A stretch of DNA of 64,000 nt, from assembly GCF_029227855.1 (NCBI RefSeq), contig NZ_CP074356.1; one strand, 5' to 3'. This DNA comes from Escherichia coli (GTDB lineage Bacteria; Pseudomonadota; Gammaproteobacteria; Enterobacterales; Enterobacteriaceae). The translations under genes and the position numbers were made by a program. How positions within the stretch are numbered: the stretch's first letter is position 1; every line of letters begins with the position of its first letter. Below the pieces are notes generated by a model. The model was not told the origin of the DNA. It was given only the letters and a program-made list of their open reading frames with translations, and made no database searches. Of this stretch, positions 49,619-54,370 are shown one piece after another.

Positions 49619-49905
49619 TTACCCTGAACTGACGATACAACAAAGGCGCAACGCTTTTGAGATAAAGGATCGATGCTTTCGCTGCTTTTACCCTCTACCA
49701 TTAGGCTAATTGCGACGAGAAAGGGACGACCTATGAATACTAACGTTTTTCGACTGCTCCTGCTGGGAAGCCTGTTCAGCCTTAGCGCCTGTGTGCAGCA
49801 AAGCGAAGTGCGACAGATGAAACACAGCGTCAGCACGCTGAACCAGGAGATGACGCAACTCATTGACATCCTCCACGCCCTGAAGGACGTGGATCCCTGC
49901 TACGT

Positions 49906-51114
49906 TCAGGCTGTCGCCTGAATCATTTCGGTGGGTTCCTGCTTCAACGGGCGGCCTGACTGCACCATCTCTCCACAGGCAAGAACGGCGTGCCCCGCCG
50001 CTAAAATGTTACGAGCGCCATTTACATCGGCGTTCGCTGTATATCCACATACCTGGCATCTGAATTGACTTTGTGACAGGCGATTTTCTTTCGCTGTATG
50101 ACCACAGCACGCGCAACGCTGACTTGTGTACGCTGGCGGAACAGCAAGCACCTGACCGCCACTCCAGAGCTGCTTGTACTCAAGCTGGCGGCGCATTTCA
50201 TACCAGCCCTGATCCAGTATCGAACGGTTTAAACCTGATTTTGCCCGGACATTGCGCCCCGGCTGGCTGACCGTACCCGCTGCTGACTTTGACATGTTAC
50301 TGACCTTCAAATCCTCAATGACTATCATTGCGTGGTTTTTGCTGACGGTCGTTGTGACTTTATGAAGGTAGTCCCTGCGGATATTTGCGATACAGGAATG
50401 CAGTCGCTGTATTTTGCGTTTCTGCTTCTGCCAGTTGTTGCTGAATTTGACCTTGCGGCTTAACTGTCGCTGAAGTCTCGCCAGCTTCTTCTGGTTTTTC
50501 TGAAAACTGTTTACAGGCTCAAAGACTGTGCCATCTGACAGCGTGGCGAGTTTAGCCACGCCAGCATCCAGCCCGACCATTGATGCTGAAGGGTGAACCG
50601 GAGTTGATACTTCACTTTCTGTCTGAATACTGATGTACCACTTACCGCAGGACTGGCAGACCGTGACATTTTTCACAACACCCGTGACCTGACGGCTATT
50701 CCGGTAGCGCATCCAGCCAAGTTTCGGCAGAAAAATACGGCTGTTTTCCTGATCGAGCTTAACGCCCTGCGGGTAGCGGAATGCATCATTCTGTCCCCGC
50801 TTTTTGAATCGGGGAAAAGCAGCCCGCTTCCGGAAGAAGTTTTTGTAAACCCGCTCAAGGTCTTTCAGTGACTGTTGCAATGGCTGTGAGGGCGAATCTT
50901 TAAGCCATTGCGTTTCAGTGGCGTTTTTCCACTCAACCAGCCAGGAAGCCATTTTCCCGTAAGGGATGTATTTATTACCGGCCTCATGATTCTCATTCTG
51001 AAGCGCCAGAGCACGATTGAAAACGAAACGACATGCGCCTGCGAAGCGCCTCATTTCACGCTCCTGTTGACCACCGGGTCTTAACTGGAATTTAAATGCC
51101 TGTAGTCGTTTCAC
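49906..51114 (-). CDS. tnpB: TnpB (OrfB) of IS605-family element; RuvC-like RNA-guided nuclease family
   Basis: 402-aa intact ORF, N-terminus [17 protein letters not shown]...; C-terminal zinc-finger CxxC...CxxC (CACCGH...CQVCGY); resembles K-12 IS609 InsQ as I recall it. Confidence 0.88.
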
Positions 51115-51121
51115 AGGCCAA

Positions 51122-51600
51122 ATGATACTTTGGTCTGTGAAAAAAGAAACCGATATCCGGCGTGGAAGGCATTGTGTTTTCCTGATGCATGTTCACCTGG
51201 TCTTTGTCCCAAATACCGACGCCAGATTTTTGACCATGACGCGACAGAAAAACCACGCACTTACTTTTCAGATGTATGTGCTGATTTTGAAGCTGAACTG
51301 GTTGAAATGGATGGCGAACCAGATCACGTCCATTTGTTAATTAACTATCCTCCCAAACTGGCGATATCCAGTCTGGTAAACAGCCTCAAAGGCGTATCGG
51401 GTAGGTGACTGCGACGAGATCGACCAGATATTGCAGTCAGGTATTACTACAAAGGCGTTTTGTGGAGTCCTGGCTATTTTGCCAGTAGCTGCGGAGGTGC
51501 GCCAATATCCGTCATCCGCCAATACATTGAACAACAGCAAACACCTGGTCAGGTGGAAAACCGCGCCTTATATCCCCGCCCTGAAGGACGGGGTTTTACG
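51122..51600 (+). pseudogene. tnpA: IS200/IS605-family Y1 transposase TnpA, frameshifted
   Basis: HVHLVFVP in one frame continues as KYRRQIF...DHVHLLINYPPK...LKG in the -1 frame (A-run at about 51211); C-terminal ...WSPGYFASSCGGAPISVIRQYIEQQ lies in a third frame. Confidence 0.75.
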
Positions 51601-52316
51601 GCGCACCGGATAAAGAAACAGTCAAAATCACTCAGCAAAACAGGCTGAATGCAAAATCCAGCAGTGGGGTTTACCTTCTGCCTGGAGCGAAAACACCAGC
51701 AAGACTGGAAAGCCAGATCGGTACTTTACGTATGTCGCTGGTGAATATTACGCCTGATACAGATGGCACCACCCTGACGCTACGTATTCAGGGCGAGTCG
51801 AATGATCCCTTGCCCGCATTCAGCGGAACTGTTGAATATGGGCAAATTCAGGGAACAATAGACAACTTTCAGGAAATCAATGTGCAGAATCAATTGATTA
51901 ACGCCCCTGCCAGCGTCCTCGCCCCCAGCGATGTTGATATTCCGTTACAGTTAAAGGGTATTTCTGTGGATCAGTTAGGCTTTGTACGTATCCACGACAT
52001 TCAACCTGTTATGCAGTAAACGTTTCGCGGGGCGTTTTGTGCGTCCCGCAACATCTTTCCCCGTCATTTTGTTACTCTGCTTACATCACCCAGATTGATA
52101 GTAAAAGTTTGCAACAAGGGTGAAAGTCAGTACAATCCCCGCCCGAATGTGTGTAAACGTGAACGCAATCGATTACGTAAATGATAGAACTGTGAAACGA
52201 AACATATTTTTGTGAGCAATGATTTTTATAATAGGCTCCTCTGTATACGAAATATTTAGAAACGCAATTTGCGCCTTTTTCACTCCCGCAAGGGATTTTC
52301 AAACAGTGGCATACAT

Positions 52317-53649: not shown

Positions 53650-54370
53650 ATCTCCATACATCAATAAATATCCTCCGGCATAGCCGGAGGTTTTTCAAAT
53701 GCGCCTATAAGGCTCTCTTACCAGCCGCGCCCTAACAGGCGCACACGATCTGACATTTGCATCCAACTTCGTTACTTACGGCCCGTAAACGGGCTGCCCG
53801 GATAGGGAATCGATAACTGCTCTCCCATTTTATCCTCTTCAAGCTGGTGCTTTATGTAATCCTGTATCTTCGCCGTGTTCTTACCCACTGTATCGACGTA
53901 GTACCCTCTGCACCAGAACTCCCTGTTCCTGTATTTGAATTTCAAATCACCAAACTGCTCGTAAAGCATCAGACTGCTTTTCCCTTTCAGATATCCCATA
54001 AACCCGGATACGCTCATTTTAGGCGGGATCTCCACAAGCATATGGATATGATCTGCACAGCATTCAGCTTCCAGAATCCGTACGCTTTTCCACTCACACA
54101 GCTTTCTCAAAATACTGCCTATTGCTCTACGCTTCTCTCTGTAGAACACCTGTCTTCGGTATTTTGGCGCAAAAACTATGTGATATTTACAGTTCCATCG
54201 GGTGTGCGCTAAGCTCTTTTCGTTCCCCATTGGGACCCCCTTTTGATTTCTTGTTTGACACTTGCAGTTGCCAGACCGCAAGGTGTTTTAACAAATCAAA
54301 AGGGGTTTTAATAACTGGCTCAAAGCTGAAAGCTTTCCGGAACCCCCTGCCTAGCTGGGGGTTTTCTGTG
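53650..54370. mobile_element. IS200-type insertion sequence (boundaries approximate)
   Basis: About 0.7 kb between yajD and secF carrying an IS200-type tnpA; upstream of tnpA are the hairpins typical of the IS200 left end (RBS-sequestering palindrome 54235..54300, GC-hairpin 54334..54356). Confidence 0.6.
53772..54230 (-). CDS. tnpA: IS200 transposase TnpA (HUH Y1 family)
   Basis: 152-aa product MGNEKSLAHTRWNCKYHIVFAPKYRRQVFYREKRRAIGSILRKL...DHIHMLVEIPPKMSVSGFMGYLKGKSS..., classic IS200 TnpA; start at internal ATG. Confidence 0.9.
   Translation of the reverse strand: MGNEKSLAHTRWNCKYHIVFAPKYRRQVFYREKRRAIGSILRKLCEWKSVRILEAECCADHIHMLVEIPPKMSVSGFMGYLKGKSSLMLYEQFGDLKFKYRNREFWCRGYYVDTVGKNTAKIQDYIKHQLEEDKMGEQLSIPYPGSPFTGRK

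Follow-up and report, generated by a model that had tools for sequence, protein, structure and literature searches.

A copy of the insertion element IS609 (IS200/IS605 family) that lies inside the lipoprotein gene yajI of Escherichia coli combines a dead transposase gene with an intact tnpB. We analyzed a 64,000-nucleotide stretch of contig NZ_CP074356.1 (assembly GCF_029227855.1; hereafter, the window), in which the Y1 (HUH) transposase gene of this element, tnpA, is a true pseudogene carrying a 1-bp deletion and an in-frame nonsense codon; both lesions recur in other complete E. coli genomes. In a sample of 17 IS609 copies, tnpB shows signs of purifying selection, whereas the tnpA remnant has a ratio of synonymous to non-synonymous changes near neutrality. 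The copy is probably a non-autonomous IS609 with intact ends, in which tnpB and a predicted omega-RNA are kept by selection for maintenance of the element.

An IS609 copy in yajI

The element occupies positions 49863..51609 on the minus strand (1747 bp), with borders drawn by alignment to the empty yajI site of K-12, and differs from the annotated IS609 of K-12 MG1655 (1503161-1504908) at 33 of 1748 aligned columns. Along the minus strand, it consists of the left end (LE), tnpA (antisense, pointing outwards), tnpB and the right end (RE). The insertion splits yajI, which is located between nrdR and tsx, into a 5' fragment (SadB/YajI lipoprotein; 49733..49862, plus strand) and a 3' fragment (51610..52019, plus strand), both delimited by the annotation of the identical record by the Prokaryotic Genome Annotation Pipeline (PGAP) and by alignment to the empty K-12 site; there is no target duplication. 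Near-identity to the K-12 element, the Y1 gene, the end hairpins and a fixed target without duplication place the copy in IS609; the uninterrupted tnpA of an autonomous element is lacking, which leaves family membership unaffected. The window copy is an ordinary, already annotated IS609 inside yajI. The window contains no second IS609 copy and no inverted repeats of 40 bp or more, which fits hairpin ends without terminal inverted repeats. The genome of JNEC-KY178 matches the window at 100% over 49850-51630, and thousands of other genomes match at 95-99%.

Two lesions in tnpA

The tnpA remnant extends on the plus strand from 51122 to about 51546-51560, as delimited by matches to Pfam Y1_Tnp (E=5e-21 for the middle piece and E=2.6e-6 for the C-terminal piece), by alignments to TnpA structures in the PDB and by PGAP; uninterrupted copies from other E. 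coli share 93-98% identity with it. After conceptual repair, the protein can be aligned along its entire length with the solved IS608, ISDra2 and Sulfolobus TnpA structures (E values from 4e-16 to 3e-21), in agreement with an earlier reading of the window by a model that ran no database searches (hereafter, the sequence-only reading), which had taken the gene for the tnpA of an IS609-like element broken at least twice. Two lesions were indeed found.

The first is a 1-bp deletion between 51208 and 51209 (plus strand), which turns GTCACC into GTCCC and shifts the frame after codon 29, the lesion itself being in codon 30; it is evident from alignment to the K-12, ST2747, O157 and tetR-locus copies. 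Where uninterrupted copies have GTC ACC A(G/A)A TAC (V-T-R/K-Y), the window has GTC-CCAAATAC and lacks the A of the Thr codon. The deletion cuts the HUH motif (HVH), located upstream of the frameshift, off from the remaining protein. The -1 shift between HVHLVFV and KYRRQIF described in the sequence-only reading is seen in both the translation and the alignment, but its attribution to a base lost from an A-run near 51211 has to be corrected: the uninterrupted copies place the loss at 51208/51209, in a non-homopolymer, non-repetitive context outside the A-run at 51211-51213.

The second lesion is a TGA codon at position 96 of the protein (51406..51408, plus strand), where uninterrupted relatives encode Leu (TTA), as identified by single-frame translation and protein alignment. 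The C-terminal block (WSPGYFASSCGG...), which had been assigned to a third frame, shares the frame of the middle block: the starts of the open reading frames 51130..51408 and 51460..51648 have the same remainder modulo 3, and the single-frame translation reads ...LKGVSGR*LRRDRPDIAVRYYYKGVLWSPGYF... (in a longer extract, ...LKGVSGR*LRRDRPDIAVRYYYKGVLWSPGYFASSCGG...). This makes the second lesion a nonsense codon in frame, located upstream of the catalytic-Tyr helix (VIRQYIEQQ). The range originally given for the gene, 51122-51648, does contain the remnant, but its last ~40 bases (51610-51648) belong to yajI, the element ending at 51609.

Two further features of the gene concern its borders. Related transposases of 138-146 amino acids end at a point (...QQTPG; 51547-51648 in the window) where IS609 tnpA lacks a stop codon. 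The uninterrupted E. coli copies read through the LE hairpin into the flank, giving predicted proteins of 168-254 amino acids, and PGAP applies the label 'missing C-terminus' even to these uninterrupted copies. At the opposite border, the starts of tnpB (GTG, 51114, minus strand) and tnpA (ATG, 51122, plus strand) are divergent, with 7 bp between them. Given this spacing and orientation, the promoter of each gene must lie within the other gene and, therefore, the tnpB promoter limits how tnpA can decay.

The lesions as population alleles

To count alleles in the population, exact matches of short allele sequences were collected from 5426 complete E. coli genomes, of which 5015 contain IS609 DNA, at ~11,000 places altogether. 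The 32-mer across the deletion was detected in 213 genomes (299 places), the 31-mer with TGA in 2599 genomes (~48%; 3143 places), and the 31-mer with TTA at the same site in 2530 genomes (4458 places). The K-12 reference itself carries TGA. Because these exact alleles recur in 213 and 2599 independent genomes, both lesions are real. The features described for the element also go well past anything that chance would produce. The sequence-only reading had allowed for homopolymer errors, such that resequencing would restore a single continuous frame, and the window sequence at the shift, CCCAAATACC, resembles short homopolymer runs. We nevertheless consider the chance that the gene is truly intact and was broken by sequencing or assembly errors to be negligible: the deletion 32-mer occurs at two different loci, the TGA 31-mer extends to the K-12 reference, and intact copies locate the deleted base within GTCACC, which is not a homopolymer. 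Sequencing artefact was rejected on the strength of these allele counts across thousands of independent genomes.

TnpB is intact

The tnpB gene (insQ; 49906..51114, minus strand) appears in the list of open reading frames as an intact frame of 402 codons with a GTG start, exactly the clean, divergently oriented frame that had been described from the sequence alone. The protein contains the Pfam domains HTH_OrfB_IS605, OrfB_IS605 and Cas12f1-like_TNB, and matches ISDra2 TnpB over its full length (8bf8/8exa; E=7e-54). The RuvC triad, D183, E267 and D363, aligns with D191, E278 and D361 of ISDra2 TnpB, and the zinc-finger cysteines are present as two CxxC pairs (C334/C337 and C353/C356). Judging from these residues, TnpB looks catalytically competent.

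In NMBU-W10C18, which carries a yajI::IS609 98.6% identical to the window copy, tnpB has a stop at codon 386. This stop comes after the last RuvC residue, so the NMBU-W10C18 TnpB may still work.

Substitution patterns in tnpB and the tnpA remnant

For comparison between copies, 17 were sampled from six loci: ydcL-ydcO, yajI, yfeD-gltX, a TetR gene (ytfB-yjfZ), the yidH region and yedK. These copies were picked through short allele queries and are a non-random sample of the ~11,000 places. Whereas tnpA is uninterrupted in 3 of the 17 copies, tnpB is intact in 13, including 10 of the 14 copies in which tnpA is broken. Among the copies with the TGA allele, the variant codons of tnpB comprise 19 synonymous and 16 non-synonymous ones, compared to 6 and 18, respectively, in tnpA (Fisher p=0.033). 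The ratio of non-synonymous to synonymous substitution rates (dN/dS) for tnpB is 0.14-0.35 in pairwise comparisons among the copies with intact tnpB. For the window copy and the K-12 copy, it is 0.16 (16 synonymous and 9 non-synonymous changes; P=9e-6 against neutrality), and for the window copy and the second copy in the identical genome, 0.35 (12 synonymous and 15 non-synonymous changes; P=0.008). In this sample, tnpB shows signs of purifying selection and the tnpA remnant a near-neutral ratio.

Copies across loci and genomes

The TGA allele is found at five loci (ydcO, yedK, yajI, gltX and the TetR gene), and the combination of deletion and TGA at two (yajI and yfeD-gltX); gltX and the TetR locus have copies with TGA as well as copies with TTA. 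The variants form a mosaic pattern among the copies, so recombination has occurred. The presence of defective alleles at several loci implies that they were moved by a transposase acting in trans or exchanged via gene conversion or strain-to-strain recombination. Gene conversion, trans-mobilization of dead copies or a leaky UGA-C stop (see below) could each underlie the occurrence of TGA at five loci.

The yajI::IS609 junction was detected in 340 of the 5426 complete genomes, and the yajI copies of three strains differ from each other by 15-28 substitutions; from this frequency and divergence, the yajI insertion appears to be old and vertically inherited within a single lineage of E. coli. The yajI site is precisely empty, with TTTAT, in at least 12 and at most ~90 genomes. 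Recent precise excision was considered as the source of these empty alleles and rejected, the flanks of two such strains being ~2% diverged from the window.

JNEC-KY178, the genome that is 100% identical over the region, has IS609 at 2 places and no insertion at ydcO, gltX, yedK or yidH. Its other copy, in the TetR gene (ytfB-yjfZ), has TGA in tnpA and an intact tnpB, the same asymmetry that the sequence-only reading had described for the window copy. With all five other known loci checked, no uninterrupted IS609 tnpA was found in this genome, so the yajI copy is stuck at present. To this extent, the earlier description of the element as immobilized stands; it does not hold in the stricter sense, given that the ends are intact and defective alleles occupy several loci. 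Because both ends retain the hairpins recognized by transposases of this family, nothing in cis blocks mobilization, and the yajI copy could, as far as its sequence tells, be excised or copied with an IS609 TnpA supplied in trans.

Element ends, target motif and predicted omega-RNA

The LE subterminal hairpin (51563..51604, minus strand; DNA fold z=-2.8) is conserved in all sampled copies, with the core CCCCGTCC-TTCA-GGGCGGGG at 51574-51593 and an outer stem GCGCC/GGCGC. The RE subterminal hairpin, CCACGTCC-TTCA-GGGCGTGG (49872..49893, minus strand), has a DNA fold z of -4.4, and the right terminus of the element is ...GGATGTCAA at 49863. The TTCA (UUCA) loop is the RE-like tetraloop motif of sotRNA and HgcC RNAs (PMC4615843).

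Directly 5' of LE lies the target motif TTTAT (51610..51614, minus strand), which the analogy with ISDra2 predicts to be the transposon-associated motif (TAM) as well. TTTAT precedes LE at 5 of the 6 loci (yajI, ydcO, gltX, tetR and yidH), the sequence at the yedK locus being CTTAT. The empty sites read TTTAT|TGAGTT (yajI) and TTTAT|TATCGG (ydcO, in JNEC-KY178), without duplication. The yajI target is polymorphic: insertion-bearing strains have TTTAT (Lys codon), and K-12 and most genomes have TTGAT (Gln). The TTTAT allele of yajI is mostly occupied, with 340 genomes carrying the element versus roughly 12-90 with the site empty.

A putative omega-RNA scaffold spans 49863..50033 on the minus strand, from the tnpB 3' end through RE. 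The Rfam search gave no match at the gathering score; the sub-threshold matches were to HgcC (49850-49969; E=0.06, 21 bits versus a gathering score of 50) and sot0042 (49872-50033; E=0.24, 17 bits versus a gathering score of 88), both of which are RNAs of tnpB 3' ends. The stretch has a modest fold z of -2.0, and variable sites are sparser there than anywhere else in the element (density of 0.047 versus 0.07 elsewhere). The guide, placed by position in analogy with ISDra2 TnpB, would be 5'-TGAGTTGCGTCATCTC (49847..49862, minus strand), that is, the yajI flank directly 3' of RE.

Full-length tnpA matches were few in a plasmid search for intact IS609, which returned mostly LE-like fragments of 55-60 bp. 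Many plasmids carry the terminal 55-60 bases of LE (51555-51609) at 93-98% identity but not the remaining element. Klebsiella, with 882 of the 1517 plasmid records that gave any match, and Salmonella are the main sources. Such fragments could represent end-only derivatives, or related IS200/IS605 elements with this end in common.

Proposed maintenance of the element and alternative explanations

The scenario that we favor as probable starts with insertion of IS609 3' of TTTAT in yajI, followed by vertical inheritance. The copy carries a widespread and probably old TTA to TGA allele at codon 96, shared with IS609 at four other loci, to which the younger 1-bp deletion in codon 30 would have been added later. 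TnpB and the omega-RNA are predicted, by analogy, to work as in ISDra2-type systems, as an RNA-guided nuclease. This nuclease would cut the joint of TAM and guide that is left by excision (TTTAT + TGAGTTGCGTC...), and recombination would then restore the element. Selection acting on the element family as a whole could favor such selfish maintenance as long as TnpA is present somewhere in the population, and in copies without TnpA, the tnpB module would decay slowly; slow decay of this kind fits the scattered, lineage-restricted lesions in tnpB.

Several points weigh against this scenario. Four of the 17 copies have a broken tnpB, each through an independent lesion (a 100-bp deletion, or a stop at codon 107, 315 or 386), so selection on the gene would be weak or intermittent. 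Hence, the suggestion in the sequence-only reading that the TnpB module persists for its own function agrees with the dN/dS asymmetry relative to tnpA but sits less well with these broken copies. The evidence of selection comes from a small, non-random sample, 17 of ~11,000 places. Should gene conversion have spread TGA, some of the divergence in tnpB may be older than the inactivation of tnpA, in which case the low dN/dS would partly reflect the autonomous period. A genome without TnpA has no excision, so the proposed maintenance function has no substrate there. Finally, the omega-RNA is predicted from sub-threshold Rfam matches (E=0.06 and 0.24) and a modest fold (z=-2.0).

The main rival is plain neutral decay, whereby the whole element is dead cargo and tnpB is intact because too little time has passed. 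It draws on the lesions in 4 of the 17 tnpB copies, three of which have the tnpA with deletion and TGA, and on the lack of a significant deficit of independent disabling events per base in tnpB (4 in 1209 bp) relative to tnpA (3 in ~430 bp). Nevertheless, we regard it as unlikely given that the substitutions in tnpB are strongly biased towards synonymous ones (dN/dS of 0.14-0.35, with P down to 9e-6), whereas the tnpA remnants, unlike tnpB, show the ~1:3 ratio of synonymous to non-synonymous changes expected under neutrality. Furthermore, the tnpA nonsense allele is present in ~48% of the genomes, whereas each tnpB lesion is lineage-restricted. Much less probable still is domestication of TnpB (InsQ) for a host function independent of transposition, as an RNA-guided regulator or in defence. 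The presence of IS609 DNA in 5015 of the 5426 genomes, the purifying selection on tnpB in copies with dead tnpA, and the retention of tnpB, but not tnpA, in both copies of the identical genome would all be compatible with domestication. In known domesticated TldR-type relatives of TnpB, however, the RuvC triad is not intact, whereas all three catalytic residues are retained here; instead of lost ends and a promoter-directed guide, the copy has both LE and RE intact and a predicted guide position that coincides simply with the insertion flank in yajI. In addition, several lineages have lost tnpB without replacement, and the well-occupied ydcO site is empty in the identical genome.

Conceivably, too, translation could leak through the TGA at codon 96, which would then only attenuate TnpA synthesis, so that the window copy was killed by the later deletion alone. 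UGA followed by C is a weak termination context in E. coli, and the window copy has TGACTG; moreover, TGA is the sole lesion of an otherwise open frame in 10 of the 14 TGA-carrying copies and is found at five loci. We deem this very improbable: the tnpA variant codons in the TGA copies (6 synonymous and 18 non-synonymous) are at the neutral ratio, and the allele with deletion and TGA, which is beyond rescue by readthrough, is also present at two loci, so sharing between loci needs no active protein. Gene conversion and strain-to-strain recombination, with mosaic variants in evidence, are the simpler explanation. Readthrough is possible in other copies but irrelevant to the frameshifted copy in the window.

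A more far-reaching proposal, to which we attach only tentative weight, is that tnpB/insQ and the omega-RNA are kept without any IS609 TnpA, both in individual copies and in whole genomes, and thus have a TnpA-independent role, the TGA at five loci being a trace of repeated copying or conversion. If so, the candidate roles would be homing into empty TTTAT alleles that arrive by recombination, or a host-level function.

Relation to known elements

The state in which tnpA is dead and tnpB intact is already known from PGAP and the K-12 reference. On the identical record, PGAP annotates tnpA as 'frameshifted; internal stop; incomplete' beside an intact 'RNA-guided endonuclease InsQ/TnpB family protein', and the same annotation is present in other strains with the yajI insertion (independent assemblies); in the K-12 reference, IS609 is annotated with the pseudogene yncK adjoining insQ (b1432). 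The literature search on decay of IS609 tnpA or the function of InsQ returned nothing specific beyond surveys and one TnpB screen, in which IS609 TnpB was one of nine TnpB proteins purified (PMC12781874); no activity measurements for it turned up in that paper.

The window copy itself matters little, being a recognizable IS609 with a dead transposase that a standard pipeline flags. The wider pattern is useful for the study of TnpB: a nonsense allele in about half of the complete E. coli genomes and at five loci, signs of purifying selection on tnpB after the death of tnpA, and at least one genome with two tnpB genes and no tnpA. IS609/InsQ of E. coli could therefore serve as a convenient natural system for the role of TnpB once the transposase is gone.

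The closest relative considered, the K-12 IS609 (1748 bp versus 1747 bp, 33 differences), has the same divergent layout of tnpA and tnpB, the LE and RE hairpins, the TTTAT flank, the GTCAA end, TGA at codon 96 and a 402-codon tnpB. It differs in location (ydcL-ydcO versus yajI), and the 1-bp deletion in codon 30 is an addition of the window copy; nine TnpB residues differ, none of them catalytic. ISDra2 of Deinococcus radiodurans shares the family architecture (E=3e-17 for the repaired TnpA with 2XM3 and E=7e-54 for TnpB with 8BF8/8EXA/8H1J), the conserved D-E-D triad and zinc finger, and a pentanucleotide target 5' of LE. In ISDra2, this pentanucleotide doubles as the TAM. Unlike the window copy with its dead tnpA, ISDra2 is autonomous, with an intact TnpA; its target is TTGAT versus TTTAT of IS609, and IS609 TnpB has an insertion of ~15 residues after the RuvC-II glutamate relative to ISDra2 TnpB.

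IS608 of Helicobacter pylori also has a Y1 transposase (2A6M, E=5e-20) and subterminal hairpins, and the right end of IS609 finishes in TCAA, as does that of IS608. In contrast to IS609, with its TTTAT target and a divergent gene arrangement like that of IS605, IS608 has tnpA and tnpB in the same direction and the target TTAC. IS1341-type (solo-tnpB) elements resemble the window copy in the combination of tnpB and transposon ends without a working tnpA, and in the UUCA tetraloop of the RE hairpin; a further likeness is to the 3'-end RNAs of the sotRNA/HgcC type, given that the 3' end of tnpB in the window weakly matches the Rfam families HgcC and sot0042. Unlike IS1341-type elements, however, the window copy keeps a recognizable tnpA remnant. 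Judging from this remnant, it is a recently disabled IS605-type element rather than one that lacks tnpA altogether.

Neighboring differences between strains

Downstream of yajI, a segment of ~138 bp that is present in K-12, THO-008 and C4 is missing from the window at ~53234, in the tsx-yajD intergenic region; it is possibly a repeat of the repetitive extragenic palindromic type. Between yajD and secF, the window contains an intact IS200C-type tnpA (Y1; 53772-54230, minus strand), which belongs to an element different from IS609. This IS200C insertion is absent from K-12, THO-008 and C4, and the identical genome has another IS200C copy next to rimL.

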